This document shows positions 38,546 through 64,000 of a DNA stretch of 64,000 nt, piece after piece (the first letter of the stretch is position 1; each line of letters opens with the position of its first letter). The stretch comes from Candidatus Eiseniibacteriota bacterium (GTDB lineage Bacteria > Eisenbacteria > RBG-16-71-46 > CAVPCR01), in assembly GCA_963823555.1 (NCBI GenBank), contig CAWGMA010000004.1, positions 640,001 through 704,000 on the forward strand. Direction: 5' to 3'. The notes under the pieces are model-generated. The model had not been told where the DNA came from and searched no databases. It was given only the letters and a program-made list of their open reading frames with translations. The position numbers and the translations under genes were made by a program.

Positions 38546-39516
38546 CTAGCCTGAGCTGCCGGTCGCGCTCCCGTTCTCATCGAGCCAGCGGAGCAACTGG
38601 GAGATGCTCCCGAAGGCGAGCGCGATGCTCGTGTCCGCAGCGCCGTAGTAGAGGTTGATCGTGTCGCCGTCGGCGCCGAGCGTGTAGCCGCAGGGGAACG
38701 CGACGTTGCTCACGTCGCCGTGGCGCTCGTAGGACGCCTCGGGTCCGAAGATCCACGAATCGCCGCGCGAGATGCAGTGATCCGGCTTCTCCAGATCGAA
38801 GAGGGCAACACCGAGGCGGTATAGAGATCCAGCCGCCGTCTGTCGAACGCCGTGGTAGAGCATCAGCCAGCCTCGTGGCGTCTCGATGAGCGGCGGCGAC
38901 AGCCCGACCTTGTTGGCGTCCCACCAGCCACCCCGGCGGGCCTGCAGGACCAGCTTGTGCCTTCCCCAGTTGCGGAGATCCGGCGAGTAGGAGATCCAGA
39001 TGTGCGCCCCGGAGTCCGTCGTCGGGCGGTGCATGAGCGCGAAGTTGCCGTCGATGCGCCGCGGCAGCAGCGCGGCGTCCTTGTCGTCGGGCTGCATGAC
39101 GAGGCCAAAGCGCTCGAAGTGCCGGAAGTCCGTCGGTCAGCGCGAGCGCCACACCCGGCCCGCCCTTGCTGAAGGCGGTGTAGGCGATGGCGTACTTGCC
39201 GAGTTCGTCGACGAACGTGATCCGCGGGTCCTCGATCCCCCACAGCTCCTCCGGATAGTTCTCGGGGTCGGGGCGCAGCGTCGGCTCGGCGTCGATGACC
39301 CATCCGTCGATGCCGTTGGCCGATCGCGCCGCACACAGGTGCGAGAGGCCCGAGCGGTCCTCCACCCGGCACAGCAAGCAGCGTCGTGCCGTCGTCGAGC
39401 TGAGTGGCGCCCGCGTTGAACACGGTGTGGGCCGGATAGGGCCAGTCGGCTGCGGTCAGGATCGGGTTCTTCTCGTGCCGGAGGAAGAACGTCTCGTACT
39501 TGTGCCCTGGCATCAT
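38546..39516 (-). CDS. GH130-family glycosidase/phosphorylase (2 apparent frameshifts)
   Basis: NPILT...VFNAGA, RVEDRSGLSH, GIEDPRIT, DDKDAALLP, HRP, GWLMLYHGV, VAFPCG and YYGAADT are spread across three frames. Confidence 0.85.
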
Positions 39517-42267: not shown

Positions 42268-43869
42268 ATGTCGAACGGCAACCGAACCCTCTCCCTCTGC
42301 TTCCTCCTGGCGCTCATGGCCTGGGGCGGCGCCGCCTCCGCGCAGTGCATGCTCGCCAACCCGAGCTTCGAGATCCCCGGCACCGGCGGCATGCGCTTCG
42401 GCGGGTGGAACCAGTTCGGATCCGTGGGCTCGTCCGCCGATGCCACGCACGGCGCGGTCGCGGCCCGGGTGTCCGGCCCCAATCAGGGCGGCTGGGATGT
42501 CTCGGGGTTCTGGCAGCGCCTGGATTCGGCTCCCGGCGAGCGGTGGACCGCTTCGGTCAAGGCCTGGCACACGCCGACCCGCCCGCTCACCGGGCAGTCG
42601 GTGGCGATCCTCAACATCGAGTGGAGAAGCTCGAGCGGCGCCCTGATCGACTACGAGTCCCACGCGGTGGCCAGCGCCTCGACCCCCCTCGACGAGATCC
42701 AGCTCTTCACGGTGGAGAGCGGGCCGGCGCCCGCGGGCACCGCCGCCGCGCACTTCCTTCTCGGCGTCCTGCAGAGCCCCACCGATCCAGTGCCGGATGT
42801 CTACTACGACGAGGCCACCTTCGACAATCTGGGTCCTCCCACGCTCGATGAGAAGCAGTGGTTCGACTTTCCCGGCGGGCGGACCGTCGACTTCAGCGGT
42901 CGCATCTGGCGCGTGAAGGGGCCCGGCTACTACGGCCCGGGCCCGAACCTCTTCAGCGACGCGCCGAGCTCGGTCTGGGTGGACGTGGAAGGCAGGTTGC
43001 ACTTGACGATCCGGCGCATCGCCAGCTCCTGGTACAGCACGGAGGTGGCTCTCGAGGAAGCGCTGGGCTACGGCGACTACATCTTCACGACCCGCGGGCG
43101 GCTCGATGAGCTCCATCCCAATGTCGTCCTCGGCCTCTTCCTGTGGCAATACGGGGCGTGCTACGACCCGGCCTATCTGTGGTGGAACCCCCACAACGAG
43201 ATCGACGTGGAGTTCAGCCGGTGGGGGCAGCCGGGGATCGATGGGGCGCAGTTCGTCGCCCAGCCCTTCGACTACCCGGGGAACATCAACCGCTTCAGCG
43301 TCACATTCAGCGCCGACGAGCTCACGAGCCACGCGTTCAACTGGCTCCCCGATCGGGTCGAGTACCGGAGCTGGCGCGGCGGTCCCGGAGACGAATCGCC
43401 CACGAGCCTGATCCACGCCTGGACGTATCGCGGTCCGCACATCCCGCGACCGGAGCAGCCGCGGGTGCACATGAACCTCTGGCAGTTCGAGGCCCCGCCG
43501 AGCACCGATCAGGAAGTCGTGATCGACGAATTCACCTTCACCCCGGCGGGCAGTCCCAGCGGTCTTGCCGATGTGGAGCCGGCGCCTGCCGCCGCGGTCG
43601 CTCTCCACCCGGCGCGACCGAATCCGTTCAATCCCTCGACAACGATCAGCTACAGCGTGGCGCACTCCGCGCACGCGGAGCTCGTGATCTACGATGTCAG
43701 GGGGAGGCTCGTGCGCGCGCTCTGGCGCGGAACGGTCCCGGCGGGGCGGCACGAAGTGATCTGGGATGGCCGGGATGACTCGGGGGCCCGGGCCGCATCC
43801 GGGGTCTACGCTTGTCAGCTTCGCGTCGGCACGGTCGAGGAGACGAGACAGCTCGTCCTCTTGAAGTAA
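42268..43869 (+). CDS. Secreted CBM-like + GH16-like glycoside hydrolase + FlgD-Ig tail
   Basis: Signal peptide ending ASA; LANPSFE beta-sandwich; LGYGDY; NEIDVEFSRWG (ExDxE); tail PNPFNP...IYDVRGRLVR...WDGRD...SGVY. Confidence 0.75.
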   Translation: MSNGNRTLSLCFLLALMAWGGAASAQCMLANPSFEIPGTGGMRFGGWNQFGSVGSSADATHGAVAARVSGPNQGGWDVSGFWQRLDSAPGERWTASVKAWHTPTRPLTGQSVAILNIEWRSSSGALIDYESHAVASASTPLDEIQLFTVESGPAPAGTAAAHFLLGVLQSPTDPVPDVYYDEATFDNLGPPTLDEKQWFDFPGGRTVDFSGRIWRVKGPGYYGPGPNLFSDAPSSVWVDVEGRLHLTIRRIASSWYSTEVALEEALGYGDYIFTTRGRLDELHPNVVLGLFLWQYGACYDPAYLWWNPHNEIDVEFSRWGQPGIDGAQFVAQPFDYPGNINRFSVTFSADELTSHAFNWLPDRVEYRSWRGGPGDESPTSLIHAWTYRGPHIPRPEQPRVHMNLWQFEAPPSTDQEVVIDEFTFTPAGSPSGLADVEPAPAAAVALHPARPNPFNPSTTISYSVAHSAHAELVIYDVRGRLVRALWRGTVPAGRHEVIWDGRDDSGARAASGVYACQLRVGTVEETRQLVLLK

Positions 43870-43890
43870 GAACCTGGCACCCGGCCGCCC

Positions 43891-46800
43891 TCAGAAGCGA
43901 CACAGCGCGTCGTCGGGCACGGTGACCTCGATCTGCGCGATGCCCCCACACCTCGCGAGGAGCGCCTGGCTGGTCTCTGGATCGAGCTCGTCGCCGGCGA
44001 CTTCGCGGATCTCCCCATCGCTGCCGGTGATGCGGATCGCCGCGACGTTACGGCTCCGCCTGTAGATGATGGGTACCTGGCAGAAGGTGAAGGCGAGCCC
44101 ATCCGCCGGCACCTCGATCGAGATCGGATGCCCCTCGAGGTCATGGAACCGGGCGCGCCCGCCCTCCCGCCGGAACTCGCTTGCCCGGAGCAGCACCGGC
44201 TGAAAGCTCACCACGCCATCCGCTGCGCGCACGCCCAGCTCCCCGAATCGGGTCAGGATCTCCTCCTTGACCTGTCCCGTCATGCCCGGTTGCTGCGCCC
44301 CGGCGTGCGCGGGGGTATGGGAGTAGGGGTCGGTGGGGAAGGCGCCGTATTCGCCGACGCGTCTTCTCGAAGCCGAGGCCGGAGCGGATGCGATAGTAGA
44401 AGCCGACCAGCGCCTCCTGACGTCGCGCTCGACTCCTCCTCGTGGATCGGCCCGCAGGGCTACCTCCTGCACCGCGAGCAGGAGCTTCGCCACCATGTGC
44501 CAGTAGATGCAGCCCAGGCCTTCGTAGCCGTACATGGTGCCCGAGCGGCCGGTGAAGGACCGGTGATCGAAGACCGCCTCGAAGACATCGAGGACGGCCT
44601 GGCGATCCCGCGTCACCGCCAGCGCCCAGCGCTCCTCCTCGGCGAGCCGATCCAGGGCTGCGGCGACATCGAGCGCATTGCGGAAATCGCTGTTGAAGCG
44701 GTAGATGCCGAGCGGCATCCCGCGCCAGGATCGAGCGCTCTCCCGCCGCGATCAGGTCGCGGAGGAGCGGCACCGCCAGGACGCGCTCCGGCGGAACCAC
44801 GTTCGCGATCGAGGAACTCCGGCAACTCCCGGGCCGGATAGAGGAGGAAGCTCCGCTGGTCCTTCCGGTAGAGCTTGCTCTTGAAGAGGATCGAGAGAAG
44901 ACGTGCCGCCTCCTCCGGGTCCACGACGCCGGAGCTCAACGCCGCCACCTGACCTTCGAGCATCTCGTAGAGCGGGCGGATGCCGGCCGCCGACCCATCG
45001 GGGGCCATCACCAGCAGGTTGTAGGCGTGGTAGAGCCCGTCGGCGCGCCGATTGGCGCGGATCGCATGGTCGATGAAGGCGAGAGCATGCGCGAGGAGCT
45101 CCTCGATCTCCGCCGTTTCCAGCTCCTCCTTGCCCGAGAAACCGCTCCGGTACACCGTCTCCCGATAGGCGGAGAACGCCTCGCCCAGGGCGTCCAGCAC
45201 CTGCTTCCGATCGCGGTCTTCGAGCGCCGCTGAACCGAGGAGCGGGCGGCTCTCCGCCATGATCACGCCGAGTCGCCGCAACCACGCCGCGACCTCGGTC
45301 GAGATCGCGACCGTGTCGCCGTCGAGATCCGCGAGAAGCTCGGCCACGAAGCGGAGATAGCGCCGCAGGTAGCACAGGGTCACCACCGAGAGTCCATGCC
45401 CGACCAGCGCATTGTTGGCGTCGTTCCACTCGGGTCGCTGGGTGTTCATCCAGATGCCGCCGTCGGGAACGAGGTTCGACAGCTTCGAGAGCGCCGGGAG
45501 GAGGAGCTTCTCGACGAGGTTGACGCGGTAGATCGTGCCGTCCCGATCGGGAAGGAGCTTGCCATCGGCGCCGATGGCGCGGACACGCTCCTCGATCCGC
45601 GCCGCCAGCTCCGTGTCGAAGACGATGGTGTGGTGCGGATCGGCGAGGATCTCCCGGTACGGCTTCAATCGGTAGGGAACATCGGCAAAGGAGAAGATCT
45701 CGCGCGTGAGGAGGCCTTCGAGCGCGCCGGGGGAGACCCGCACCAGCGCCTCGATCAGCTTGAGCAGGTAGATGATCTGATGGTCGCCCCAGTATCCGAT
45801 GTTGCTCCACGGGTCGTCCGGATCGACGGTCTCCCAGTCCATCCCGTCGGAGGTGACCCGATAGGGATTGAAGCCATCGATCGTCGACATGTTGACGAAC
45901 TTGGTGACGAAGCTCGGGAGGAACATCGGGAAACTGAGGCTCAGGGCTTCCCAGTTCTGGAAGATGTCACGCCAGTTGCCCTCGTAGTAGGAGCGCGCGC
46001 GTGCCGTCCTCGTTCTTGACCCGGATCTCGAACCGGTTCCAGGGACGGCTGGGGTCGCCATGGCGCCGTCCGAAGTAGAGCGGCAGGTACTCCCGGCTCA
46101 GTCGTTCGAGATCCGAGTCCCCCGTGCTGTCGGCCGCGCGGAGGAGATCGGCCAGCGCGATCTCCGCGGGGAGCGAAGCGACGAGAGCCTGATGGCGGTC
46201 CGCCACCGACCGCTGGCGCCGGCGCAGGAACCGGAGGAAATCCGCCGTCGGGATCCGGTCGTTGTCGGCGAACACCCCGCCTCGCATGTTGTTGAAGAGA
46301 ACGTTGGCGAAGTGATGGGCACTCGCCTCGCGATGGGCCGTGAACTCGAGCCCGTCGGCGCTGGCGACGATCCGGCACAGGTTGTCGGAGGCCTGGTCGA
46401 GACTGTTCTCGATCGCCTCGTCGAGGCGGTGTTGGGTGAGGAGCCGGGCGCGAAGCGCCGCCAGCTCGATGTGGTCCGAGACCCGCATCGGCGACGAGGT
46501 GCCACCGGGCTCCGGCGCCAGGCTCGAGATCGAGCGCAGCGGTGGCCAGGTAGTTGCCCCGCCTCCCGGTCAGGAGGTTCTCGGAGCGGAGGCGCTCGCC
46601 GCGGCGAAAGGCCTCGACCGCGTCGGCCGAGACGAGGATGGCGGCGTCGTCGAGCCCGGCACACCAGACCGCGTTCGCCCGGAGCTCCTCCGAGGCCTCG
46701 GCTCGATCCACGATGCGCGACGTGAGGGAGAAGATCCCGAGTCCGGTCTCCAGGTCGCAGTCCACCCGCTTGTAGGCGTCGACGAGACTGCTCGATCCCT

Positions 46801-47363
46801 GCTGCAGGGCGAGCGGCACGCCGTGGGGCATCACATTGCGGAGGCCGTCGAGGAGGGAGACTCGAGCCGGTCGCGAGTCGAGATTCTCGATCATCGCCGT
46901 CCGCACGAGCCCGAAGGCGTCACATGCCGACCAGCGGTAGCGGAAGGCGAGCCGGAGGTCGTGGTTGACCTCCTCGAAGACGAGTCGATTGCCGAGCGTG
47001 TTCTTGTAGAGATTCCGCTCGACGCTGAAATCGCCCCCGCAGGTGTCGGCGAAGGGTTGCCAGAGGGTGGTCGTGCGCTGGTCGCGGCGGACCCGGAACA
47101 GGGTGATCGGCCCGGTGTGGTGGTGAGCGTGGTGGAGCTTGTCGACCGTCTCGTAGGGGAAGAGGCACCCATCCGGCATCGATCCGGCCTGCGGTCAGGC
47201 CGCCGCCGGAGGAGATGAACATCCACAGATCGGTATCGCTGGGGATGCTCATCAGGAAGGAGGGCATCAGGTGATAGGAGGAGATCCGATAGGACTCCTC
47301 GCCATCCACCGTCGTGAACTCGCCGGTTGGTTCGGAGATGCCGCTGACTACGGTCGTCGCCAT
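43891..47363 (-). CDS. Probable GH149 beta-1,3-glucan phosphorylase (~1150 aa, several apparent frameshifts)
   Basis: LWMFISSGGGLTAGR, HFANVLFNNMRGG, EYLPLYFGRRHGDPSRPWN, YEGNWRDIFQNWEAL, IGYWGDHQIIYL, IWMNTQRPEWNDANNAL, YEMLEGQVA, YEGLGCIYWHM, AFPTDPYSHTP...QQPGMTGQVKE. Confidence 0.75.
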
Positions 47364-47540
47364 AGCTGCTCGAGTTCCGGCGAGTCGTCGCGGATCATCA
47401 TCGCGAGGGCACGAGGGTCCCACCGCGCCGCGACATCGCGCCCGATACGAGCTGCGCCTCAGGCCGACTGAGGCGCAGCTTCTCGTGTCCGCGATTCTCG
47501 CGCCGGCCTCCGGCGGCCAGGGAGCCGCCGGCCGGCGTCG

Positions 47541-48473
47541 TCACTTGATCAACGTCATGCTGCGCGATGACCGGCCGAGCGGCGTCTCGAGCACGTAGTG
47601 GTAGACGCCGGCAGCAGCCGGAGAGCCGTTGGCCATCTTGCCGTTCCAGGTCGCCTGATGGGGACCGGCATCGAGCTGGCCCTCGAGCAACGTGATGACG
47701 AGGCGGCCGCCAACGTCGTAGATGCTGAGATCCACCGCGCTCTGCTCCGTGAGGTCGAAGCGAATGAGCGTGGCCGGATTGAAGGGATTCGGCACGTTCG
47801 GGTGCAGGACGAGCGACTGGGGCGCCGGCGCCGGAGCGTCGGACACGCCGATCACGAGTTCCTGCAACGAGGCGTCGTCCCAGAAGATCGATCCGCTCTG
47901 GGCGCCGTCGATGTCGACCTTGACGATGACGGCGTGGACCGTGGCCGTGTTGGGCGGCGCCGGAGCCGTGCCGCAACCGAGCAGCGTCCACTCATCCTGC
48001 GGCGTGGTGGCATCGATCAGGTTCGACTCGAAGATGTCGACGCCGAACAGGCCGCCGGCAGCCAGCTGGCCGCTCGCGTCCCGGAACTCGATCTTGTAGA
48101 CGCCGAAGTCGACATCATCGATCGGGTCGGTGCTCGAGTTCATGGCCCAGACCTCGCCGTTCCAGGTCTCGCCGGGTTCGGCAGGCAGTGCTTGGGTGCC
48201 GCCCGAGCCGCCCGCGGGAACGAAGGGGCCGAAGGTCTTCAAGCACTGCGCTCCGGAGCGGAACAGGGTGGCCGTCGTGAAGACGTTGTTGAAGGTGTCC
48301 CAGTCGGCGGTGCCGGGCACATCGCCGCCCGAGGCATCCGGCGCCTCGAAACCGGGATTCAAGAGCTGGGCGGATGCCTCTCCGCCCACTCCCACGAGGA
48401 ATAGAGTCCCTGCGACCATGACGCAGCCCCAGACCAGGGTCCTTGTGAAGGACATGGCGCGCTCTCCTTTCAT
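47541..48473 (-). CDS. Secreted CBM-like beta-sandwich protein with FlgD-Ig tail
   Basis: Signal peptide ending ASA; QLLNPGFE...IFWDDASL domain; tail PNPFNP...IYDVGGRLV...WNGK...GVYHY. Confidence 0.8.
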   Translation of the reverse strand: MKGERAMSFTRTLVWGCVMVAGTLFLVGVGGEASAQLLNPGFEAPDASGGDVPGTADWDTFNNVFTTATLFRSGAQCLKTFGPFVPAGGSGGTQALPAEPGETWNGEVWAMNSSTDPIDDVDFGVYKIEFRDASGQLAAGGLFGVDIFESNLIDATTPQDEWTLLGCGTAPAPPNTATVHAVIVKVDIDGAQSGSIFWDDASLQELVIGVSDAPAPAPQSLVLHPNVPNPFNPATLIRFDLTEQSAVDLSIYDVGGRLVITLLEGQLDAGPHQATWNGKMANGSPAAAGVYHYVLETPLGRSSRSMTLIK

Positions 48474-48587
48474 GCCTCCGGTCGCGACATCCCGACGCCG
48501 GCGCTGCTGCTCGCGCCGGGCCCCAGGGTAGCCCCCGGAGGATCGGGGGCACCCTGGATGGATTCGAAACCGGCTAGGGGCGATCGA

Positions 48588-49239
48588 CTAGAACAGGCTC
48601 TTGATCTGACCCCAGGAGCTCGGCTCGACGGGCACCGGGTCATCGATGAACAGCCGGGCGTCGTCCCAGAAGATCGATCCGCCCTGAGCGCCGTCGACGT
48701 CGACCTTGACGATGACGGCCTGGGCATAGGCGGTGTTCGCCGGCGCGGGAGCCGTGCCGACGCCGAGGAGCGTCCAGACGTCCAGCGGCGTGGCGCCGCT
48801 GATCTGATTCGACTCGAAGACGTCGACGCCGAAGATGCCGCCGGCGGCAAGCTGGAAGTTCACATCGAGGAACTCGATCTTGTAGACGCCGAAGTCGACG
48901 TTGTCGATGGGATCGAGGCTCGAGTTGAGCGCGATAGATCTCGCCGACCCAGGTCTGACCGGGCACGGCCGGGAGCGCCTGCACGGCGCCGGAGCCGCCG
49001 CCCGGGGCGAAGGGCCCGAAGGTCTTGAGGGACTGCGATCCGCTGTGGAAGAGAGCCGCGGTGGTGAAGACGTTGTTGAATGAACTCCAGTCGGCCGTAC
49101 CGGGTACGTCACCGCCGGACGCGTCCGGCATCTCGAAGCCGGGGTTGAGGAGCTGGGCGGATGCCGTACCCGCCATTCCCATCACGAGGAGAGACAACAT
49201 GGCTGCGACGCCAACTGAGAAACGGTTGCGCTTGGTCAT
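48588..49239 (-). CDS. Secreted CBM-like protein, close paralogue of 47541..48473, ending in PVEPSSWGQIKSLF (1 apparent frameshift near 48933)
   Basis: ORF 48640..49239 gives the signal peptide and QLLNPGFE...; ORF 48588..49112 gives ALNSSLDPIDNVDFGVYKIEF...IFWDDARL...SWGQIKSLF*. Confidence 0.8.
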
Positions 49240-49352
49240 GGCTCACGACGCCTTTCCGAGTTGAATCCATCTTGGTCGGGCCGTTCCCGTCGCGGCCATC
49301 CGTGGATCATGGGCCGTCCCTGGGGCCGCGAGGATGCCTGCCCGACTTGACC

Positions 49353-49425
49353 TTGACATCCAGGGCTCCATCATACACTATGTTCGCCAGGCGAACAAAG
49401 CTCTTTTGTTCGGGGCGCGAACAAA
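49353..49425 (+). promoter_or_regulatory. Sigma70-type promoter followed by two tandem operator palindromes (putative ROK repressor sites)
   Basis: TTGACA at 49353-58; -10 is TACACT (49374) or CACTAT (49376). Operators are TATGTTCG-ccagg-CGAACAAA (49379-99) and TTTGTTCG-gggcg-CGAACAAA (49405-25). Confidence 0.75.
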
Positions 49426-49467
49426 GATCCAGCCCTGAGGCCCCGCTCAGGGTGCCAGGGAGACCAG

Positions 49468-50490
49468 GTGCGAGCCGACGGCCAAGCCACAGCCCCGCTC
49501 CTCGAGGTGCGCGAGATCCGCAAGGCCTTCACCTCGCACGGGTTCTTGATCCCCAGTGAGAACGACTGTTGCGGCCCGGGACGTGTCGTTCACGAGTGGA
49601 CCGGGGGGAGGCGGTGGCGCTGGTGGGGGAGTCTGGAAGCGGCAAGAGCACGGTGGCCCGGCTGGTCCTCCGGCTCGAGACGGCCCGATGGCGGGGAGAT
49701 CCGGCTCGATGGGGAGGACGTGCTGGCCCGCGAACCGCGCCGGGCCTCGCTCGCGCTACCGGCGGCGGGTGCAGATGGTCTTCCAGGATCCCTTCGGCTC
49801 TCTCAATCCCGTTCACACGGTCGGCCATCATCTGCTGCGGCCGCTCCTGCGCCATCGATCGCGTCGACGCCAGCGGCGGCGCGGGCGCAGGGCCCTCGAG
49901 CTTCTCCGCACCGTCGGGCTCGAGCCGGCGGCGGAGTTCATCGATCGCCACCCCTACGAGCTCTCCGGTGGCCAGCGGCAGCGCGTGGCGATCGCCCGCG
50001 CGCTCGCCGTCGATCCGGACCTGCTCGTGGCCGACGAGCCGACCTCGATGCTCGACGTCTCGATCCGGATGGGAGTCCTGAACCTCCTCGCCGAGCTCAA
50101 GCGAGAACGCAGGCTCGCCATCCTGCTCATCACGCACGATCTCGCGTCGGCCCGCTATCTCGCCGACCGGGTGCTCGTGCTCTATCCGCGGGCGGGTCGT
50201 CGAGGACGGCCCGAGCGCGGCGGTCGTCGCGGCCCCGGCGCATCCCTACACGCGCGCGCTCCTCGCCGCGATCGCTGACGCCGGTGAAGCGGGTGATTCC
50301 GCCGCCGTGCCGGCCGCCGCCGCGGCCGCGACCGGGGAGCTCGACTCGACACGCGGCTGTCCCTTCGTCGCCCGCTGCCCGGAGGTGCTCGACCGCTGCC
50401 GACGCGGTGGATCCGGCGCCGCGATCGGCCGATGACCGGCTCGTGCGCTGTCACCTCTATCCCGAGGACGCGCACGCGGCACGGAGCTGA
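49468..50490 (+). CDS. Opp/Dpp-type ABC ATP-binding subunit, OppF-like (frameshifted)
   Basis: [74 protein letters not shown]...C...VRCHL. Confidence 0.85.
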
Positions 50491-50496
50491 GCGGCG

Positions 50497-51914
50497 ATGG
50501 GTCGCGTTCGTCCTTCCCGGACGGATTCCTGTGGGGTGTCGCCACCTCGGCGCAGCAGATCGAGGGGGCCGAGCGGGAGGGCGGGCGCGGCGAGTCGATC
50601 TGGGATCGCTTCGCGGCGACTCCCGGCAGCGATCGCCGACGGCTCGGACGCCGAGCGTCGCCTGCGATCACTACCACCGCTGGCGCGGAGGACATCGAGC
50701 TCATGCGCTGGCTCGGCGTGGGCGCCTATCGCTTCTCCATCGCCTGGCCCCGGATCCTGCCCCGCGGGCGCGGTGCCGTCAACGCCGACGGGCCTCGACT
50801 TCTACGACGCGCTCGTCGACGCGCTGCTCGAAGCCGGCATCCGGCCCTTCGTCACCCTCTACCACTGGGATCTGCCGCAGGCGCTCCAGGACGAGGGCGG
50901 CTGGGCCGCGCGCGACACGGTCGACGCTTTCGCCGAGTACACCGATCTGGTGACGCGCGCGGCTCGGCGACCGCGTCGCGCACTGGGTCACGCACAACGA
51001 ACCCTGGTGCGTCGCCACGCTCGGCTACGAGGAAGGGCAGCACGCCCCGGGCTCACCGCGATCCCGCCGAGGCCCTGCGCGTCGCCCACCATCTGCTCGC
51101 TCTCCCACGGCCGGGCGGTCGAAGTCCTGCGGCAGAACGCGCCAGGGAGCCGAGGTCGGCATCGTCCTCAACCTGACGCCCGCCATGCCGGCCTCGCACG
51201 ACCGCGGCCGATCGCGGATGCCGCCCGCCGGTTCGACGGATCCTTCAACCGCTGGTATCTCGATCCGCTCTTCCGCGGGCGCTATCCCGCGGACGTGATC
51301 GCGGATCGCGTCCGGCGGGGCCATCTGGCCGGCCTCGATCTCCCCTTCGTTCACGCCGGGGACCTCGAGACCATCGCGCACGCCGCTCGACTTCCTCGGG
51401 CGTCAACTACTACAGCCGGGTCGTCGTGCGGGCCGGCGACGGACGGCGAGCCGGTCGCCGTTCCGCATGGTGCCCGACGAGGAGCTCACCGACATGGGCT
51501 GGGAGGTCTATCCCGCAGGGTCTCCACGATCTGCTCGTCCGCCTCGATCAGCGAGTACCGGCCGCCGAAGATCTACATCACCGAGAACGGCGCCGCCTAC
51601 GGCGACGCGCCCGACGCCGACGGGCCGCATCGCCGACGCGCGCCGCGTCGACTTCCTGCGCGGCCACCTCGCCGCGGCGCACCGCGCGCATCGCCGCCGG
51701 CGTGCCCGCTCGCCGGCTACTTCGCCTGGTCGCTGCTCGACAACTTCGAGTGGGCGCACGGCTACACCAAGCGCTTCGGCCTCTACTGGGTCGACTTCGC
51801 CACGCAGGAGCGCATCCCCAAGGACAGCGCGTTCTGGTATCGCGACGTCGTGGCCGCGAACGCGGTCACCGACGAGCAGCAATCCCGCTGCAGCAATCCA
51901 CTCGAGGAGGCTAG
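50497..51914 (+). CDS. GH1 beta-glucosidase (many apparent frameshifts)
   Basis: [44 protein letters not shown] (acid/base), IYITENG (nucleophile), [18 protein letters not shown]. Confidence 0.9.
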
Positions 51915-51916
51915 CC

Positions 51917-54900: not shown

Positions 54901-55154
54901 CGACTTCAACCTCACCTTCCCGGTGCAGCTGATGGGCGACATCTCGTACACGCTGGGCACGCCGCGCTGGTTCGGGTATCCGCAGACCCGCATCGGCGTG
55001 CGCGGCACCTGGCGCTCGCTCGACGAGTACTCGCCGCGCTACTGCCCGGCGACGGTCCCCGGCCCGGGCGGCACTCCGCAGTGCGACCCGACCGCCCCGG
55101 GCGCGAACGGGCGCGAGTGGGAGATCCGGACCTACCTGCACCTTGGCGATCTGA
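51917..55154 (+). CDS. Clan GH-A (GH2-like TIM barrel) glycosidase fused to a predicted outer-membrane beta-barrel (~1050 aa, many apparent frameshifts)
   Basis: GTG at 51917 with GGAGG RBS. GMNWDYIPIG, MGVNAIRQY, WLLGNENNYG, MFTEFGAD, FQWSDGWWK, MNEEWWGI. The C-half has amphipathic aromatic strands ending EWEIRTYLHL. Confidence 0.7.
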
Positions 55155-55169
55155 GGCGCGCCCGCGCGC

Positions 55170-56150
55170 CGTGCTGACTCGCCGCGCAGGTGACAGGCGG
55201 CGGCGTGGCCCGGGGCCGAGCTCGATGCAGCTCGGGCGGGTCCGCTCGCGGCAGAGATCCGATGGCGCGGTCGCAGCGCGGGTGGAAGCGGCAGCCCGAC
55301 GGCGGGTGCTCGAGGCTCGGCGGCGCGCCCGGGATGCTCGCCGAGCTCCGTCGTGTCGCCGCGGACCGAGGGGAAGGCGCGCAGGAGCCCCTGCGTGTAG
55401 GGATGCCGCGGCGTCGCGGCGCAGCTCCGCCGCCGGCCCGACCTCGACCAGCCGTGCCGCGTAGAAGACCGCCACCCGATCCGAGAACTGCAGCATGCGC
55501 GCGAGGTCGTGCGTGATGAAGAGCACGGCGAAGCCGAGCCGCCGCTGCAGCGCCCGGATCTGCTCGAGGATCTCCCGCTCCACGATGACGTCGAGCGCCG
55601 TCGTCGGCTCGTCGAGGATGACGAGCGCCGGCTCGAGCGCGAGCGCGAGCGCGATGCCCACGCGCTGCCGCATGCCGCCCGAGAGCTGGTGCGCGTAGCT
55701 GTCGAGCCGATCGGCGGGGATGCCCGACCATCTCGAGCAGCTCGCCGGCGCGCGTCGCGCGCCCGCGCCGGCGGGACGGCACCGTGCGCGAGCAGCGTGT
55801 CGACGATCTGCTCGCCGACCGTGATCACCGGGTTGAGCGCGTCCATCGCGCTCTGGAACACCATCGAGATCCGCTTCCAGCGCAGCTCGCGCAGCTCCGG
55901 CTCGTCGAGCGCGAGGATGTCGCGCCCCTCGAAGCAGCACGCTGCCGCCCGTGATGACCGCCGGCGGCGGCAGGATGCGCAGGAGCGCCTGGGCCAGCGT
56001 CGACTTGCCGCTGCCCGACTCGCCCGGCGATCCCCAGGATCTCGCCGCGCCCGACGTCGAGCGACACGTGATCGATGGCGCGCACCGGTCCCGCGGTCGG
56101 TGACGTAGTCGACGCAGAGGTCGCGGATCGGAGAGCAGCGGCTCAGTCAT
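55170..56150 (-). CDS. Opp/Dpp-type ABC ATP-binding subunit, OppD-like (frameshifted; 3' end approximate)
   Basis: [68 protein letters not shown]...ACHL. Confidence 0.85.
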
Positions 56151-57092
56151 GATCGCGCCACCACCGGTGTCGAGCGCGTCGGCTCCTGGCCGCGCGCGGC
56201 CAGGTAGCGCGCGCCAGGCGCGCTCGAGCTGCAGCCGCGGATTGGTGATCTCGTCGAAGCCCGAGTTGAGCATGGTGAGGCCGAAGCCGACGAGCGCGAC
56301 GCAGAGCCCGGTGGGCGCGAACGTCCACCAGGCGCCGGTCAGGAGCGCCGAGTCGTTCTGCGCCCAGTAGAGGTTCGTGCCCCAGGTGACGGCCGAGACG
56401 TCGCCCAGCCCCAGGAACTCGAGCCCCACCTGGGCGCCGATCGCGTAGACGGTGCTGCCGATGACCTGGGCCACGAGCAGCGACGTCATGTTGGGCAGGA
56501 TCTCGCGGGTGATGATGCGGAAGCTCGACTCGCCGGCCACGATCGCCGCCGGCGACGAAGTCGCGCTCGGCGCAGCGCCAGCGTCTGCGCGCGCAGCACG
56601 CGCGCGTTCCAGGCCCAGCCGGTGACGACGAGCACGAGCCCGAGCGTGAGCGGGCCCGGAGGGCAGGTAGGCGGCGATGACGATGGCGAGCGGCAGGCCC
56701 GGGATGACGAGGAACACGTTGAAGAGGAGCGAGAGCAGGCCGTCCACGCGGCCGCCGAAGTAGCCGGCGGTGACGCCCACGAGCGCGCCGACGAGGACGA
56801 CGACGAGGCCCACGCCGAAGCCGATCGCGAGCGAGATCCGCGTGCCGACCACGAGCTGCGCGAGCACGTCCTGCCCCTGGCCGGTGGTGCCGAGCCAGTG
56901 CTCGCGCCGAGGGCGGCTGGAGCGGGATGCCGACGAGCGCGTCGGGATCGCCCGACGAGCCAGGGACCGACGAGCGCGACGAGCAGGAAGACCGCGAGGA
57001 TGCGCGGCGCCGATCGTCGCCTTGCGGTCGCGACGGATCGCCTCCCACCAGGCCGCGATGCCGGTCGCCCGGCGATCGCCGGCGTCGCTCAT
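56147..57092 (-). CDS. Opp/Dpp-type ABC permease, OppC-like (frameshifted)
   Basis: HWLGTTGQGQDV, GVTAGYFGG, IPGLPL, EILPNM, LEFLGLGD...TWG, NPRL. Confidence 0.85.
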
Positions 57093-58081
57093 GACGCGGG
57101 CTCCCGGGTGCGCGGATCGAGCCACAGGTAGACGAGGTCGACGAGCCAGTTCGCGCCGAGCACCGCCAGCGTGATGACGAGGAAGATCCCCTGCATGAGC
57201 GGGATAGTCCTGGTTGCGCACCGCCTGCACGAGCAGGTAGCCCTGGCCGGGATAGGAGAAGACGATCTCGGTGAGGAGCGAGCCGCCGAGAACGAAGCCC
57301 GAGCGCCATGCCGAAGCCGGTGACGCTCGGCAGGAGCGCGTTGCGGGCGGCGTAGCGCAGCACGACGCGCGACGGGGGCGAGCCCCTTGGCCCGCGCCAG
57401 GTTGACGTAGTCCGAGCCGAGCATCGCGATCATGGTGTTCCGCATCGAGAGCAGCCAGCCGCCCAGCGTCGCCAGCACGACCGTGCCGACGGGCAGCACC
57501 GCGTGGCGCACGACGTCGGCGAGGAAGGCGAGCCGAGAAGCCCGGCGTCAGGTCGTCGCCGTAGGCGTGGCCCAGCGGGAAACCAGCCGAGCGTGAAGCC
57601 GAGCACGTAGAGCGCCACCATGGCGAGCCAGAAGTAGGGAAACGCGCCGAGGAAGACGAAGCGTCGAGGGCAGCCACGGTGTCGAGCCAGCCGCGCCGCC
57701 ACCAGGCGGCGGCGACGCCGAGGAGCGTGCCGATGGCGAAGCTGACCACCACCGCCGTGCCGGCCAGGAAGATGGTCCAGACGAGCCCGGTGCCGATCAC
57801 CTCGGCGACCGGGCGACGGGAAGTAGGCGACCGAGATGCCGAGGTCGCCCCGCAGCACGTGCGCGAGATAGGTGAAGTACTGGCCGAGGAGCGGCGCGTC
57901 GGTGAGGCCGAAGGTCTCGCGCAGCGCCTCCATCGCCTCCGGGCTCGAGCCGGCCGCGGAAGCGCGCGAAGAGCGCGGTGGCCGGATCGCCGGGCATGAG
58001 GCGGGGCAGGAAGAAGTTGAGCGTCAGCGCCACCCACGCCGCGAGGAGGTAGAAGCCGAGTCGTCGCAGGATGTAGCGCAC
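57089..58081 (-). CDS. Opp/Dpp-type ABC permease, OppB-like (frameshifted)
   Basis: GTG at 58081 with GGAGGA RBS. FFLPRLMPGDP, QYFTY...GDLGIS, ARAKGL, RNALLP, TEIVFSYPG, DYP, LDPR. Confidence 0.85.
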
Positions 58082-58092
58082 TCGACGTCCTC

Positions 58093-59778
58093 CTAGCGCG
58101 GCGTGAGGGTGGTCAGGACGAGCAGGCACTCGCCGCGGTCGAACTTGTTCGGCGACGGATCGGCGTACGGATGCTCCGCCGACGGGAAGCCCGTCGAAGC
58201 GGCTCGTGTTGTACTCGGCCCAGGACGGGTTCGGGTAGAGCGGGATCGCCGGCGCCTCGGCGACGAAGATCCGCTGCAGCTCGTCGGCGAGCCGGTCGCT
58301 GGCGTCGCCGGATCGGGCTCGCGCTCGAAGGCCGCGAGCGCCGCGTCGGCCGCGGGCTGCCGTAGCGGTGCCAGTTGCCCATCGACGCTCTCGCCGATCG
58401 GGCTTCACCGTCGCCGAGGACATGAGCCAGCGGTAGAAGAGGTAGGGCGTCGGCCCCTCGAACGACCACCCGAGGCTCAGGTCGAAGTTCCCCTCCTGCA
58501 CGCGCTGGAACCAGGCGCTGAAGTCGTAGGTGCGCACCGAGGCCGTCGATGCCGAGCTCGCCGCAGACCGCGGGCGATCACCTGGGAGGCGCGCACCCAG
58601 TCCGACCATCCCGAGACGGTGAGGATCTCGTAGCGCCAGGGCTCGCCGTCGGGCAGGCGCCGCACGCCGTCCTCGCCGCGCGCGATAGCCCGCCTCGTCG
58701 AGGAGCGCCTCGGCGCGGGCCAGGTCGTAGCGCACCCAGTCGTCCGTCGGCGGCGATCTCGGGATCGTGCCAGGCGGCGTAGGCGTCGCTCAGGCCCGTG
58801 GCGTCGGCCGGGCGCGAGTAGCGGTAGAGCGCCACGTCGACCAGGAGCTCGCGGTCGATCGCCATGCTCAGCGCCTTGCGCACCCGCACGTCGTCGAACG
58901 GGGCGCGGGTGGTGTTGGCGTAGAGGAAGATGGTGCTCCCGGTGAGCGGGAACCAGTAGCGGTGGTGCTCCGGATTGCGTCCGACGAAGACGCGGTCGAT
59001 GGCGGGGACGAAGTTCCCGGCCCAGTCCACCTCGTCGAAGACCAGGGCCAGGTTGGCGCGGTCGTTGGCCGGATAGGCGGGGAAGCGGAGCGCCGTCGAT
59101 GCGCGGCCGGCCCTCCTGCCAGTAGCGCGGGTTGCGACCGAGCTCGTAGACCTGGTTGCGGAAGACGCGCACCTCGGTGAAGGGGCCGGTGGCCACCGGG
59201 TTCTCGTTGGGGAACGTCACCGGATCCGCCACCTCGCTCCAGACGTGCTCGGGCACGATCTGCTGCGCCGCCACCTCGTCGAACCCGGGGATGAAGACGC
59301 GCTGGAAGCGGAAGTCGACCGTGCGCTCGTCGATCGGCGACCACGCCATCGAGGAAGCCCCAGACGCCGCGGCGGTCGAGCGCCGGATGCGCTGCAGGAG
59401 CGTCGAAGGTGAACGCGACGTCGCGCGCCGTGAAGGGCTCGCCGTCCGACCAGAGCACGCTGTCCCGGGTCGTCACGCGCAGCACGCGGTTCCCGTCGCG
59501 CCACTCGTGCGCCGACCGCGAGCCACGGCACGTACTCGCGCTGCACGCTGTTGAAGACGAAGAGCGGCTCGTAGATGCCGGCGAGCGTGGGCCAGCGGGC
59601 GGCGGTGGCGGTCGTGAGCGGGTTGAAGTTGCGGATCCAGGAGGCCTGCTGCTCCTGCGAGACCACGAGCACGCCTTCGGGAGCCCGCGGCCGTTCCCGG
59701 ACGCAGGCCGCGTCCCGCGACAGCGACGATCGACAGAGCCATGGCGAGCGTCGCCGGCGCGTGCCGGACGCTCATCAT
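58093..59778 (-). CDS. Family-5 (OppA-like) solute-binding protein, probably oligosaccharide-binding (frameshifted)
   Basis: RNFNP, IYEPLF, PWLA, WSDGEPFTARDVAFTF, IVPEHVW, PVATGPF, PFDDVRVRKALSMAIDR, GWSDW, PAIPLY. Confidence 0.85.
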
Positions 59779-60611
59779 CTCGAACCTGTAGACGCGCACC
59801 CAGTCGACGAGCATGGTCTGCGGGAAGTCCGTGCTCGCGTTCGGCGGGCCGACGAAGTGGCCGCCCACCGCGACGTTCAGGATGATGAAGAACGGATGGT
59901 CGAAGACCCAGCGCCCGCCGGTCGGCAGGCTCGCGCGGAGTGACGACGCAGGTAGGGGATCGTCGTCGACGAACCAGGTGATGCGGCTCCGCTTCCCACT
60001 CGACCGCGAAGACGTGGAAGTCGTCGTCGAAGCCCGCGTCGCCGGAGAGCGTGTAGCGGCCCGTCACCGCGCTGCCGCCCGAGTAGCCCGGGCCCGTGGA
60101 GGCTGCCGTGGAGGATCTCGCGGCTCCTGACCGCGGTACTCCATGATGTCGATCTCGCCGCACGCGGGCCAGCCGACCGTCGTCGAAGTTGGCGCCGAGC
60201 AGCCAGAACGCGGGCCAGATGCCCTGGCCGACCGGCAGCGGATCCGCGCCTCGAAGCGCCCGTGCGTCTGCTCGAAGATGCTCGCGGGTGTTGATGCGCC
60301 CCGAGGTGTAGCTCCGCCCCTGGTAGGTCTCCTCGCGCGCGGTGATGGCGAGGTGGCCTGCGCCGTCGAGCGAGACGTTCTCGGGCGGTCGGTGTCGTAC
60401 TCGAGCTGCGCGTTGCCCCAGTCGGTGCCGATGTCGAAGCGCCAGCGTGGCGGCATCGGGCGACTGCCCGGCCGGTCCCTCGAACTCGTCCTCCCAGACG
60501 AGCTGCCACTCCGCCGAGTCCTCGTCGCAGCCGTCCTGCAGCCGGCGAGCACGAGCGCAAGCGCCGCCAGCAGAGCCAGTCGAACGGAACGATCTGGTGC
60601 CTGCGTCTCAT
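59772..60611 (-). CDS. GH16 endo-beta-1,3-glucanase (laminarinase type), probable lipoprotein (frameshifted)
   Basis: LVLAGC (lipobox-like), LVWEDEF, WGNAQLEYD, YTSGRI, GRFEARI, WPACGEIDIMEY, DFHVFAVEW, FPQTMLVDWVRVY. Confidence 0.85.
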
Positions 60612-61836
60612 GCGTTCTCCGTGCGCCGCGCCGCCGACCGGGAAGAGGCGCGAGTCGGCGAGCGCGGCCTTGAGCACCAGGGTCGCGGCGCCGACCGCCA
60701 CGGCCTGCGGTGCCGAGCTCGCTGGTCCGGATCTCGGCGGCGGCGACCGAGCTGACGAGCGTGCGGCCGCGAACCGTCTCGCGCAGCGGCTCGAGCAGCA
60801 GCTCGCCGAGCCGCGCGAGCCCGCCGCCGAGGATCACGAGCGACGGGTTCATGAGGTTGAGCAGACCGGCGACGGCGATGCCCAGGTGCTCCGCGGCTTC
60901 CCGCACCACCTGCAGCGCCAGCGGATCGCCGGCGAGCGCCGCGTCCTCGATGGAGGTCGATGGTGAGCCCGTTGCCGGCGAGCGCTGCTTTCGGGGTGAT
61001 CGGCGGAGCAGCGACGCGCGCGCGCTCCACCAGCGCCGGCGCGCCGACCAGGGTGGCGAGGCAGCCGCGCAGCCCGCAGATGCAGGGCTCGCCGTGCGGA
61101 TCGATGGCCAGGTGTCCGATCTCGCCGGCGACGCCGGTGGCGCCGCGGTAGATCTCGCCGCCGATGACGTGACCCGAGCCGATCGCCGGTGGCGACCTTG
61201 ATGTAGGCGAAGTCGTCGACGCCGCGCCCGGCGCCCCACCAGTGCTCGGCCAGCGCGCCGAGGTTGGCGTCGTTGTCGACGAGGAGCGGCACGCCGAAGC
61301 GCGCGCGCAGCGCCTCGAGCCCGCTCTCGCCCCGCCACTCGGGAAGCACGACCTCCGAGAGCCGGTCGGGATGCGAGGGATCGACCGGGCTGGGGACGGC
61401 GACGCCGATGCCGACCAGGCGCTGCTGGCCGCTTCCGGCGTCGCGCAGGCAGGCGTCGCAGAGCTCGGCGATGAGGGCTCGCGTGCCCTCGGGATCGGTG
61501 CGCACCGGGTGATCGCGGTGCTCGCCAGGCGAGCACGCGGCCGCGCAGATCGGTGAGCGCCACCGCGACGTGGGCCGCGCCCATCTCGACGCCGAGGATG
61601 CGCAGGCGTCGTCCTGGAACTCGAGCACGATCGGCCGGCGGCCGCCGCGCGAGCGGGCCGGCGCCGACCTCGGCGACCAGCCCGGTCGGCGAGGAGGCTG
61701 CCGACGATCTCCGAGACCGTGGAGCGCGAGAGATCGGCGCGCCGGGCGATCTCGGCGCGCGAGATCTGGCGCTCGTGCCAGATCAGCCGCAGCACCGAGT
61801 CGGCGAGGGGGCGCGCGCGGGTCGGATCGGCTCGCT
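60608..61836 (-). CDS. ROK-family transcriptional repressor (frameshifted; start codon appears corrupted)
   Basis: HTH ISRAEIARRADLSRSTVSEIV, GGRRPIVL, VDNDANLGALAE, GEIGH...CICGLRGCL (Zn motif), NLMNP, LGGG. AGGAGG RBS at 61842-47. Confidence 0.9.
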
Positions 61837-61881
61837 CGGCCCTCCTGGTGCGTGGCTCGCTGGCGCTCGATGGCTGCGAAC

Positions 61882-63243
61882 CTACCTGTGGAAGTACACG
61901 TTGTCGATGTACGCGGTGCTCGTGTCGCCCGAGATGATGAGCTGGGCGAGATGCGCCCGGCTCGTGAGGCCAGTGAACTCGCCAGCGGGATGTCGAGGCT
62001 GACCCATGTCGCCGTGACGAGCGGGGGCGTGGTGGCGGCGTTGAACGTGAGCTCGTGCTCGCTGTCATCGCCGCCGCCGAAGATCGCCGTCCGCGCCGAA
62101 GTCGACGAGCTTGACCCGGAAGACGTTGCCCTCGGGCACCCAGACGTCGAGATGGAAGTGCGTCATCGCCGTGGCGTCGATGGTCTCGGTCGCGAACTCG
62201 ATGCCCGCGTAGATGAGGTTCGTGTAGACCTTGACGTCGTCCCCGGCGATCTCGAGGTCGGTGACGTCGGCCAGGTCCCAGCCCGCCGACCAGGTGTCGA
62301 CGGGGACATCGCTGTAGACGTTGCTGAAGAGCGAGATGACATCCGCGGCGGGAAGCGTCGGCGCCGGCGCCGGCGTGTCGGGCGGGGCGATGGCCATCAC
62401 GTTCACCTCCCCGGTCGCCTCGACCGTGCCGAGCTTGGCGGTGATGACGGCGCTGCCGCCTCCGACCACCCGGATCTCGCCCTCGGTCGTGAGGGCCACG
62501 CTCTCGTCGGAAGAGATGTAGGTGAAGTAGCCGGGCATGTGAGCGATGGTCTCGTCGGTTCCGTCGACGTCGAAGATGGTCTCGGTGCCGTCGATGGGCA
62601 CGGTGGCCCCGACGAAAGCGCTCACCTCCCGCGATTCCATGCTCGGCCGCGGGTTGGTGATCGTGCCGACCTTCTCGAACATGATCTCGTCGAACCAGAC
62701 CTGGTGGCCTTCGTTGCCCTCGGGTCCTTCGGCGAAGAAGAAGAGCCCGCGCTCGGACGCGAGTCGCGCCGGGAGCGGGATCGGGATCACGTACTTCGTC
62801 CAGGTCGTGGTGAGCGGGATGCGGCTCCAGCTGGCCTCGTACTTCGAGGTGCCGGTGTTGTCGTTGCCGAGCCCGGCGATGTCGAGCGTCGTGGGCTTGC
62901 TCGACTTGGCCCAGAAGGTCAGGGCGTCGTAGCCCGAGAGGTCCCGCACGACGTCGGCGGTGAAGGCGCCGCCGGCGTAGCCGCCGTCCGGATCGCCGGC
63001 GCGGGGGATCTCGACCCGGAGCGACGCGGTGCCCTCGTAGGCCTCGTTCGTGTCGATGAAGACGGCGTCGAGGTTGGAGCCGAGGAAGGCCTGGAACTCG
63101 ACCGCGCCGGTGAAGCCGTCCTGGAAGACGATGGGGTCGGTGCTCAGCGGGTAGGGCTTGAGTCCCGAGGTGTCGCGCTCGCAGCCCGCAGCCAGGATGG
63201 CGAAGAGGGCCAGCGTGGCAGTCACCGGAGGCGAGTATCTCAT
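61882..63243 (-). CDS. Surface lipoprotein: CBM-like domain + Ig-like domain + 'PAPTxxAADVISLFS' domain (putative glucan-binding; frameshifted near the 3' end)
   Basis: Lipobox LAAGC; RDLSGYDALTFWAK...WTKYVIPIP...WFDEI; Big_2-like YISSDESVA...GSAVITAKLG; APAPTLPAADVISLFSNVY; ends YIDNVYFHR*. Confidence 0.75.
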
Positions 63244-63340
63244 CGTCGTTCCTTGGATCGGGCTCCGGCGTGAAGGCCGGGATCCAGTCGGGCCAGACCG
63301 GCTGGCGGGTCGTAAGCGGCCACCGTGCCAGCCATTCCAG

Positions 63341-63390
63341 CTTTGTTCGGCCTGCGAGCAAAGTATGCGGGGGCGGTGGCTGATTGTCAA
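63341..63390 (-). promoter_or_regulatory. Sigma70 promoter immediately followed by a third operator palindrome
   Basis: Minus strand TTGACA (63390-85) - N17 - CATACT (63367-62); operator cTTTGTTCG-gcctg-CGAGCAAAg at 63341-63363. Confidence 0.8.
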
Positions 63391-63689: not shown

Positions 63690-64000
63690 ATGAAGGCTTC
63701 CGCCCTTTGCGTCCTCGTCTCGACCGCTTGTCTGCTGTTCCAGGTCCCCGTAGCCCGCGCCACCTTCTCCATCGCTGCCGTCGACCTCCAGACCGGAGAG
63801 GTGGGAAGCGCCGGAGCCTCATGCATCTCGGGCTCCATCATTCTGAGCGATGTGCATCCAGGCGTCGGCGTGATCCATACCCAGGCCTACTGGAACTCCC
63901 AGAACCAGCAGAACGCCCGCAACCTCATGAACCAGGGCTGGTCGCCCGAGGAGATCATCGACTGGCTGGTGGCCAACGATGCCCAGGGCAATCCCACCAT
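63690..64000 (+). CDS. Secreted DUF1028-family (Ntn-hydrolase-like) protein, 3'-partial
   Basis: GGAGG RBS; signal peptide then TFSIAAVDLQTGEVGSAGASC...PGVGVIHTQA; runs off the window end. Confidence 0.8.
   Translation, partial: MKASALCVLVSTACLLFQVPVARATFSIAAVDLQTGEVGSAGASCISGSIILSDVHPGVGVIHTQAYWNSQNQQNARNLMNQGWSPEEIIDWLVANDAQGNPT

Follow-up and report, generated by a model that had tools for sequence, protein, structure and literature searches.

By which route do beta-1,3-glucan oligomers cross the outer membrane of a bacterium whose glucan locus encodes no TonB receptor and no SusC/SusD pair? The question is raised by a locus at positions 42268..63390 of the window, i.e. the whole 64,000-nucleotide stretch of Candidatus Eiseniibacteriota DNA analyzed here (G000:C4:640001-704000; host genome G000, 4.6 Mb in 4 contigs, 92.5% complete). 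A sequence-only reading of the window had described a beta-1,3-glucan utilisation locus in which enzymes known from Bacteroidota are combined with a Thermotoga-like ATP-binding cassette (ABC) importer. It had listed among the parts, but not as their core, a fusion of a clan GH-A glycoside hydrolase (GH) domain to a beta-barrel. This fusion is a conserved and undescribed part of the locus, and its barrel probably serves as a TonB-independent beta-1,3-glucan gate with a coupled GH158-like hydrolase, replacing SusC/SusD or another TonB receptor in a conserved locus.

The GH-A/barrel fusion and its relatives

Searches with PF00593 and PF07715 revealed no TonB receptor in the locus, as the sequence-only reading had stated; the seven PF00593 matches of the host genome all lie elsewhere. 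SusD (PF07980) was found neither in the host genome, which is 92.5% complete, nor in any of the 151 genomes of the phylum, so that its absence is lineage-wide.

Most genes of the locus are broken by frameshifts, though every listed part sits where it had been placed. The annotation was therefore based on intact orthologs from relatives, which were placed back on the window by tblastn and aligned over almost their full length (GH149 phosphorylase residues 1-1154 in six frame segments, 64-78%; fusion residues 41-1047; solute-binding protein (SBP) residues 22-556; surface lipoprotein residues 10-464).

The fusion protein consists of a GH158-like clan GH-A domain (~52077-53300) and a predicted outer-membrane beta-barrel of ~24 strands (~53300-55150). 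AlphaFold2 models of orthologs reached a pLDDT of 95.2 for the barrel (109 sequences) and of 92.0 for the full-length fusion. The secondary-structure (DSSP) list of the barrel contained 24 long strands, with loop hairpins left out of the count, and short turns alternated with long loops. All listed Foldseek and VIA matches were membrane barrels. AlgE led the VIA matches (Z 15.4, rmsd 7.0, 308 aligned). Alignments with the ushers FimD and PapC spanned the entire barrel model (residues 1-599; Z 12.3 and 11.5), and the best TMq in the Foldseek list was 0.38; none of the listed solved barrels appeared close to that of the fusion. Pfam gave no meaningful match for the C-terminal ~600 residues of the fusion, and no TonB-dependent transporter (TBDT) or plug match (plug domain, PF00593) in two fused orthologs or two stand-alone forms of the barrel. 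The predicted barrel is large, belongs to a family not yet described and is conserved in the locus. Relatives of the barrel made up 4920 of the 7999 scored candidates, and the Atlas neighbours of a stand-alone form (unnamed clusters, the spirochaete Msp family and Porin_4) serve as leads only.

The N-terminal domain was nearest to GH158 both by profile (BuGH158, 6PAL, E 2.9e-10) and by fold (6PAL, 9ORO). It is a clan GH-A TIM barrel whose two catalytic glutamates are conserved (73 of 76 and 76 of 80 aligned rows with a residue at the position); Pfam gave a weak GH2_C match only. The domain shares with the GH158 endo-beta-1,3-glucanases BuGH158 and GH158(Pro) the TIM barrel, and the N-E acid/base and the E nucleophile are in register, but the similarity is distant (E 3e-10, with 14-16% of residues identical in the structural alignment). 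The solved GH158 members carry at the C-terminus an immunoglobulin (Ig) domain of eight strands (PMC13195107, PMC7157763). This domain is not present in the fusion, whose model passes from helices directly into the membrane barrel. A barrel with an even number of strands begins on the periplasmic side, and the GH-A domain is accordingly predicted to be periplasmic. No description of a GH/barrel fusion was found in the literature searched, which excluded subscription journals and supplements that may describe it; in annotations the protein is hidden as a "GH2 TIM barrel protein".

The barrel and GH149 occurred together in 52 of the 151 phylum genomes; two genomes, both fragmented, had the barrel only, none had GH149 only and 97 had neither (different E thresholds were used for the two proteins, and kin are not independent). 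In the group around the genome of L068, 7 of 11 genomes had the barrel. A survey of 160 related loci, 80 from genomes and 80 from metagenomes, revealed which parts accompany it. In the genome loci the lipoprotein recurred 56 times, GH16 56, GH1 57, the ROK regulator 49 and GH149 48 times. An ABC importer was found in 12 genome loci and a major facilitator superfamily (MFS) transporter in 34, with neither in 34 (many of them short contigs); the metagenome loci gave 13, 19 and 48, respectively, and no locus of either set had both. On a barrel tree (FastTree, 90 rows, midpoint rooting, most loci without either importer left out, long-branch warnings for distant representatives) the ABC/MFS label required four changes, at least two of them being forced by well-supported branches. 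The ABC part is optional: at the inner membrane ABC and MFS importers replace one another, whereas the barrel is retained.

The system was also found in Gemmatimonadota, in cultured Bacteroidota and on marine contigs. The earlier view of a distinct system of an uncultured diderm lineage thus holds for the host, which is such a diderm, and not for the system. In Bacteroides finegoldii TSDC17.2-1.1 a DUF6377 protein, the fusion, a homolog of the lipoprotein (E 8e-94), GH16, two further proteins and BglX follow one another, and neither SusC nor SusD was found in 35 kb. This operon (L206:9937-22903, NZ_OY725931.1) stands in a record labelled as a plasmid, which is probably a piece of the chromosome since it holds rpsA and valS. 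Persicobacter has fusion, lipoprotein and GH16 in tandem.

In 21 metagenome loci, several of them near-identical, the barrel occurred without the enzyme, as a protein of ~575-600 residues with its own signal-like N-terminus. The C-terminus reads Y-x-F in 18 of the 21, the other three being cut by contig ends, and 17 adjoin SBP, GH16 or GH1 genes (SBP in 11). The 13 stand-alone barrels in the tree formed one clade with support 100 which, under midpoint rooting, was nested among the fused forms. This nesting suggests that the barrel was kept after loss of the fused enzyme, and such persistence would not be expected of a mere anchor. The co-occurrence with GH149, the constancy of the barrel while ABC and MFS are exchanged, the Bacteroidota operons with fusion, lipoprotein and GH16 (in B. 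finegoldii without SusC/D) and the stand-alone barrels together argue for a channel role.

The operons of the stand-alone barrels (L125-L145) contain SBP-oppBCDF, a GntR or LacI regulator, GH16, GH1 and glucokinase and lie mostly on marine-type contigs of 44-56% GC; the named members of one cluster belong to Pseudomonadales and Oceanospirillaceae. A distant branch of barrels (P0164, P0226, P0253, P0192, P0234) ends in Tyr or Trp, not Phe, and P0253 has an extra N-terminal module. A nameless lipoprotein family, "c0" (~206-277 residues, without Pfam match), was found in 52 metagenome barrel loci (L139-L204), mostly directly after the barrel (e.g. L167:3277-4053, L169:11809-12426) and sometimes fused to modules resembling a carbohydrate-binding module (CBM). 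It gave no match in the host genome or in L016-L124, and it is a candidate partner or lid of the barrel.

Layout, enzymes and regulation of the locus

The features of the locus, in the order of the window, are as follows.

42268..43869, plus strand: secreted protein with signal peptide, CBM-like domain, divergent GH16-like domain (EIDVE) and FlgD/type IX secretion system (T9SS)-like tail (intact reading frame; FlgD_ig E 7e-11)
43891..47363, minus strand: GH149 beta-1,3-glucan phosphorylase, five frameshifts (ortholog passes NF058639)
47541..48473, minus strand: secreted, putatively CBM-like protein with FlgD/T9SS-like tail (FlgD_ig E 1e-9; 73% to the G001 ortholog)
48588..49239, minus strand: secreted CBM-like paralog without FlgD tail, one frameshift (76-79% to the G001 ortholog)
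49347..49374, plus strand: sigma-70-like promoter for oppF, GH1 and fusion (consensus scan)
49379..49425, no strand: two operator palindromes, TWTGTTCG-N5-CGAACAAA, located within the region of the divergent promoters (25.6 and 29.3 bits)
49468..50490, plus strand: OppF-type ABC ATPase, frameshifted (PF00005; ortholog mapping)
50497..51927, plus strand: GH1 beta-glucosidase, frameshifted (PF00232 E 2e-54; ortholog passes TIGR03356; NEP and TENG motifs in the window)
51918..55154, plus strand: GH-A/barrel fusion described above, frameshifted
55170..56150, minus strand: OppD-type ABC ATPase (PF00005 and PF08352; ortholog mapping)
56143..58081, minus strand: permeases OppC (57090-56143) and OppB (58081-57089) (PF00528; ortholog mapping)
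58092..59775, minus strand: family-5 SBP of the oligosaccharide-binding class (PDB matches of the ortholog)
59775..60611, minus strand: GH16 laminarinase-type enzyme, predicted lipoprotein (ortholog PF00722 76 bits, cut-off 22; EIDIME in the window)
60610..61850, minus strand: ROK-family repressor with N-terminal helix-turn-helix (HTH) domain (PF00480 and HTH)
61882..63243, minus strand: surface-type lipoprotein with CBM-like, Big_2 Ig and CBM-like parts (all 41 of 41 aligned rows keep the lipobox Cys)
63342..63390, minus strand: third operator (63342-63362, 23.3 bits), placed right on the -10 box of the promoter TTGACA-17-CATACT, which matches at 10 of 12 positions

Three units can be distinguished. 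From the promoter at 63390 a minus-strand unit runs through lipoprotein, ROK, GH16, SBP, oppB, oppC and oppD, and a plus-strand unit starting at ~49350 (oppF, GH1, fusion) converges on it. From the same intergenic region at ~49350 a third unit, with the two CBM-like proteins and GH149, runs leftward, and from the left the gene of the secreted GH16-like protein runs toward GH149. A match to the GH149 piece was obtained in 16 of 40 relatives, and among the regions listed the layout was mostly identical, with rearrangements in G023 and G025. A recent inversion or a misassembly of 49.4-55.2 kb was ruled out, because the convergent layout is common to the same-genus genome and most relatives. Over the GH149 gene, Ca. 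Eisenbacteria L064 was the closest of the named loci (73.9% nucleotide identity), and the other named ones belonged mostly to Krumholzibacteriota, Latescibacterota and Gemmatimonadota.

In this layout oppF is parted from oppA-D (55170-59775), lies on the other strand and is the first gene of a separate unit under operator control. Since this split placement is kept in relatives, it suggests an old inversion. The GC content at 50000-62000 was 0.72, above the 99th percentile of the genome (10-kb mean 0.67, sd 0.016), and the indel density peaks here too. A GH130 phosphorylase and a GT4 glycosyltransferase fusion (38546-41700) border the locus; in G001 this pair is found at its other end. Further out are a radical SAM protein (36660-38519) and the start of a DUF1028 protein (63690-64000).

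The gene at 43891..47363 is assigned to family GH149, as had been proposed: the same-genus ortholog scored 1509.5 on NF058639 (1,3-beta-D-glucan phosphorylase equivalog; cut-off 1150) and matched PDB entry 6HQ6 with E=0. The top PDB matches of the GH16 ortholog were beta-1,3-glucanases and laminarinases (E 4e-77). The locus therefore likely serves the use of beta-1,3-glucan such as laminarin, in agreement with the sequence-only reading, whose assignments of GH1, the Opp-type importer, the ROK repressor and the surface lipoprotein were likewise borne out; the SBP of the importer is of the sugar class.

Of the two GH16-type enzymes named earlier, only the predicted lipoprotein at 59775-60611 is backed by a family model. 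The E-x-D-x-E motif of the secreted 42268-43869 protein is invariant in 27 of 27 orthologs, and an alignment of the family with the GH16b profile by hhalign was weak (E 0.014, probability 3%) with the motif in register. None of seven family members matched PF00722, even at E up to 5, no GH16 structure was matched by PDB profile, and single-sequence hhalign also failed. As no GH16 model matched, the GH16-type label of this protein comes from the motif. Similarly, both secreted CBM-like proteins were located, but neither matched a CBM family, the sole match being a weak one to NTTRR-F1 in the ortholog of the paralog at 48588-49239 (E 8e-5); "CBM-like" is accordingly used here as a putative label. 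The FlgD-tailed proteins scored 22.4 and 22.1 bits on the TIGR04183 sorting domain, just below the cut-off of 23. In the host genome SprA and PorV of the T9SS exceed their cut-offs, and beside them a FlgD-like C-terminal tail was counted on 237 reading frames, i.e. a very large T9SS-type secretome. The Atlas neighbours of the surface lipoprotein carry Big_2 or CBM_11 and are mostly from Bacteroidota; its C-terminal module occurs threefold in the Persicobacter homolog, and its only solved relatives were Ig-domain matches.

The palindrome with the consensus TTTGTTCG-N5-CGAACAAA occurs at 49379, 49405 and 63342, i.e. at both promoter-like sites (the sigma-70 consensus scan found 2 sites, 0.6 being expected); related loci carry it at the corresponding promoters too. 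A position weight matrix built from 128 distinct ortholog sites gave only three sites above 23 bits in the 4.6 Mb genome, all of them in the locus; the next site scored 14.8 bits. From this co-occurrence we infer that ROK binds the three palindromes, and the locus is likely ROK-repressed as a local regulon. The sequence-only reading had left room for a co-regulated SusCD or TBDT sharing the operator elsewhere in the genome. None was found by the operator scan, in which the best score within 6 kb upstream of any of the seven TBDTs of the host was 3.2 bits.

A second sugar locus is located outside the window, at G000:C4:612000-629400 (L207, L208). It contains GH1, GH94, LacI, a T9SS-tailed protein, a TBDT, a PorV-like gene (identified by eye) and a GH144-like enzyme matching 8XUL and 5GZH; it has no ROK operator and likely serves beta-1,2-glucan.

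Glucan entry and its alternatives

If the barrel is a gate, glucan use might proceed as follows. The FlgD-tailed CBM-like and GH16-like proteins, likely exported by the T9SS (SprA, PorV), would bind the glucan together with the lipoprotein. The GH16 enzyme, presumably lipid-anchored, would cut it to oligomers, and these would cross the barrel without TonB energy. In the periplasm the GH-A domain may shorten the oligomers and so keep the gradient, and the SBP would trap them. The Opp-type ABC importer, or an MFS transporter in many relatives, would bring them into the cell, where GH149 phosphorolysis and GH1 hydrolysis, as expected from these families, would yield glucose-1-phosphate and glucose. 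By analogy with Thermotoga BglR, a sugar product may release ROK from the three operators.

A broader idea is put forward only tentatively: beside SusC/D and classical porins, diderms might possess a third general route of glycan entry. In it, a ~24-strand TonB-independent barrel with a partner lipoprotein would carry a fused periplasmic glucanase whose cutting, perhaps of a processive kind, pulls beta-1,3-glucan chains stepwise through the outer membrane like a ratchet. The range of this route would extend from uncultured lineages of the Eisenbacteria type to marine plankton and to Bacteroides of the human gut.

Several observations weigh against the barrel as a gate. The locus genes of the window itself are frameshifted. 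That the GH-A domain is periplasmic is a prediction, and the two helices ahead of barrel strand 1, as in autotransporters, allow surface display. One of the seven TBDTs, that of the LacI/GH94/GH1/GH144-like sugar locus ~53 kb off, could import glucan oligomers under other control. TBDT-like genes were also found in 2 of the 160 related loci (L054, L121) by a partial screen, in which 34 of 102 large unassigned reading frames were passed through Pfam and a weak home-made profile was used in addition. In the laminarin polysaccharide utilisation locus of F. agariphila, SusCD and a GH158 occur together, and this GH158 may be the same fusion (bioRxiv 2026.01.10.698779). Finally, the SBP is closer to chitin-oligosaccharide binders (best PDB match of the ortholog: Vibrio 1ZTY, E 2e-81) than to Thermotoga glucoside binders (2O7I/4JSD, E 8e-59); a mannoside binder followed, and nickel and peptide binders were matched at E 4e-26 or weaker.

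The alternative that survives best is that the barrel is only an anchor, or an autotransporter-like exporter, displaying the GH158-like enzyme on the surface, and that oligomers enter via general porins or an unlinked TBDT. An N-terminal enzyme followed by a C-terminal barrel is the layout of autotransporters, and the helices before strand 1, the full-span fold matches to protein-exporting ushers and the seven TBDTs of the genome fit this explanation. However, autotransporter barrels have 12 strands, about half the count of the fusion. GH16 and the lipoprotein already use lipid anchors, and barrels without the enzyme are retained in similar ABC/GH16 operons and nest among the fused forms in the tree. 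Mere display is thus regarded as unlikely.

A much smaller chance is given to the same machinery acting on another main substrate, i.e. mixed-linkage glucan, cello-oligomers or chito-oligomers. The chitin-oligosaccharide binders nearest to the SBP would fit this, as would GH158(Pro), which acts on mixed-linkage glucan too (PMC13195107). Against it, GH149 passes the 1,3-beta-D-glucan phosphorylase equivalog and the GH16 enzyme at 59775-60611 is nearest to laminarinases; moreover, GH17 and GH30 recur in the related loci, among whose recurrent neighbours no chitinase cluster appeared.

Slightly less probable again is that the locus has decayed to pseudogenes in this genome, whatever its role in relatives. 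The high frameshift density at 50-60 kb, compared with the intact gene at 42268-43869 and the intact radical SAM gene at 36660, would be in line with decay. Raw long-read error, however, is biased toward extra bases, and the non-triplet gaps relative to the same-genus genome at 44-64 kb comprised 201 with extra bases in the window versus 91 in the opposite direction (alignment noise included). The catalytic motifs are all readable in the window: HNEPW (50993) and ITENG (51577) of GH1, GNENNY (52487) and FTEFG (52790) of the GH-A domain, EIDIME (60156) of GH16 and EIDVE (43198) of the second GH16-like protein. Because of the gap bias and the readable motifs, the indels look more like long-read error than decay. 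Operators and gene ends are also kept, and unrelated flanking genes are frameshifted too.

Least probable of all is the export or remodelling of a self-made beta-glucan in the manner of AlgE or PgaA-PgaB, with GH149 working in the synthetic direction: the top VIA match is indeed the alginate exporter AlgE (Z 15.4) and phosphorylases are reversible, but a Z-score between two barrels is due for the most part to the fold they have in common, neither a glycosyltransferase nor a synthase was recurrent among the 160 loci, and the SBP-dependent ABC importer and the GH1, GH3 and glucokinase neighbours point inward.

Known systems and significance

The combination of GH149 with an Opp-type ABC importer and without SusC/D is in itself not new, because the Type I GH149 clusters of Proteobacteria have been published (Kuhaudomlarp et al., 2018, PMC5827456). 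In these, GH149 is accompanied by a five-gene ABC cassette (COG0747/0601/1173/0444/4608) and by a regulator of the LacI or AraC type; they are described without an extracellular laminarinase or an outer-membrane transporter, and were already compared with Thermotoga in that paper. The window resembles them in GH149, the family-5 SBP, two permeases, two ATPases and the lack of a TonB receptor. It differs in the ROK regulator, the secreted and lipid-anchored GH16-type enzymes, the surface lipoprotein and the GH/barrel fusion. The Bacteroidota-Thermotoga hybrid, in which the sequence-only reading had seen the novelty, is not supported as such, given this precedent, the optional ABC part (12 of the 80 genome loci) and the lineage-wide absence of SusD.

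With the 1,3GUL of B. uniformis (Dejean et al., 2020, PMC7157763) the window shares the substrate logic, i.e. a GH16 and a GH158-type enzyme together with a glucosidase, a glycan-binding surface protein and local regulation, and the homologous locus of B. finegoldii resembles it in gene order. The window lacks SusC and SusD, carries the GH158-like domain on a barrel and not on an Ig domain, and its clade uses ROK, ABC, GH1 and GH149. The BglR (TM0032) regulon of Thermotoga maritima (Kazanov et al., 2013, PMC3553997) is similar in its ROK repressor, palindromic operator, beta-glucoside use and Opp-type importer. However, the validated BglR site, AATTTCTTTCTGAGGAAGATAGA, is unlike the palindrome of the window, and GH149, a barrel fusion and T9SS-type tails are not mentioned for that regulon in the accessible text.

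If the gate reading holds, the barrel would resemble LamB, ScrY and the chitoporin ChiP in joining a passive channel to a periplasmic binding protein and an inner-membrane importer. It would differ from their 16-18 strands by its predicted ~24, by the fused hydrolase and by the co-encoded lipoprotein; no sequence relation to these porins was found. The porin of Formosa belongs to a nitrogen cluster (PMC6246565).

Glucans of the laminarin type hold much of the carbon in marine, fungal and dietary sources, and their users are predicted in surveys via SusC/D or TonB receptors. If the barrel is a gate, such surveys would have missed a widespread uptake route, and laminarin clusters reported without susCD might be explained (e.g. 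that of an NS4 metagenome-assembled genome, PMC10108472). The fusion adds an unclassified large outer-membrane barrel and, on the gate reading, an enzyme-channel fusion, and the gate claim is directly testable in cultured human-gut Bacteroides such as B. finegoldii.

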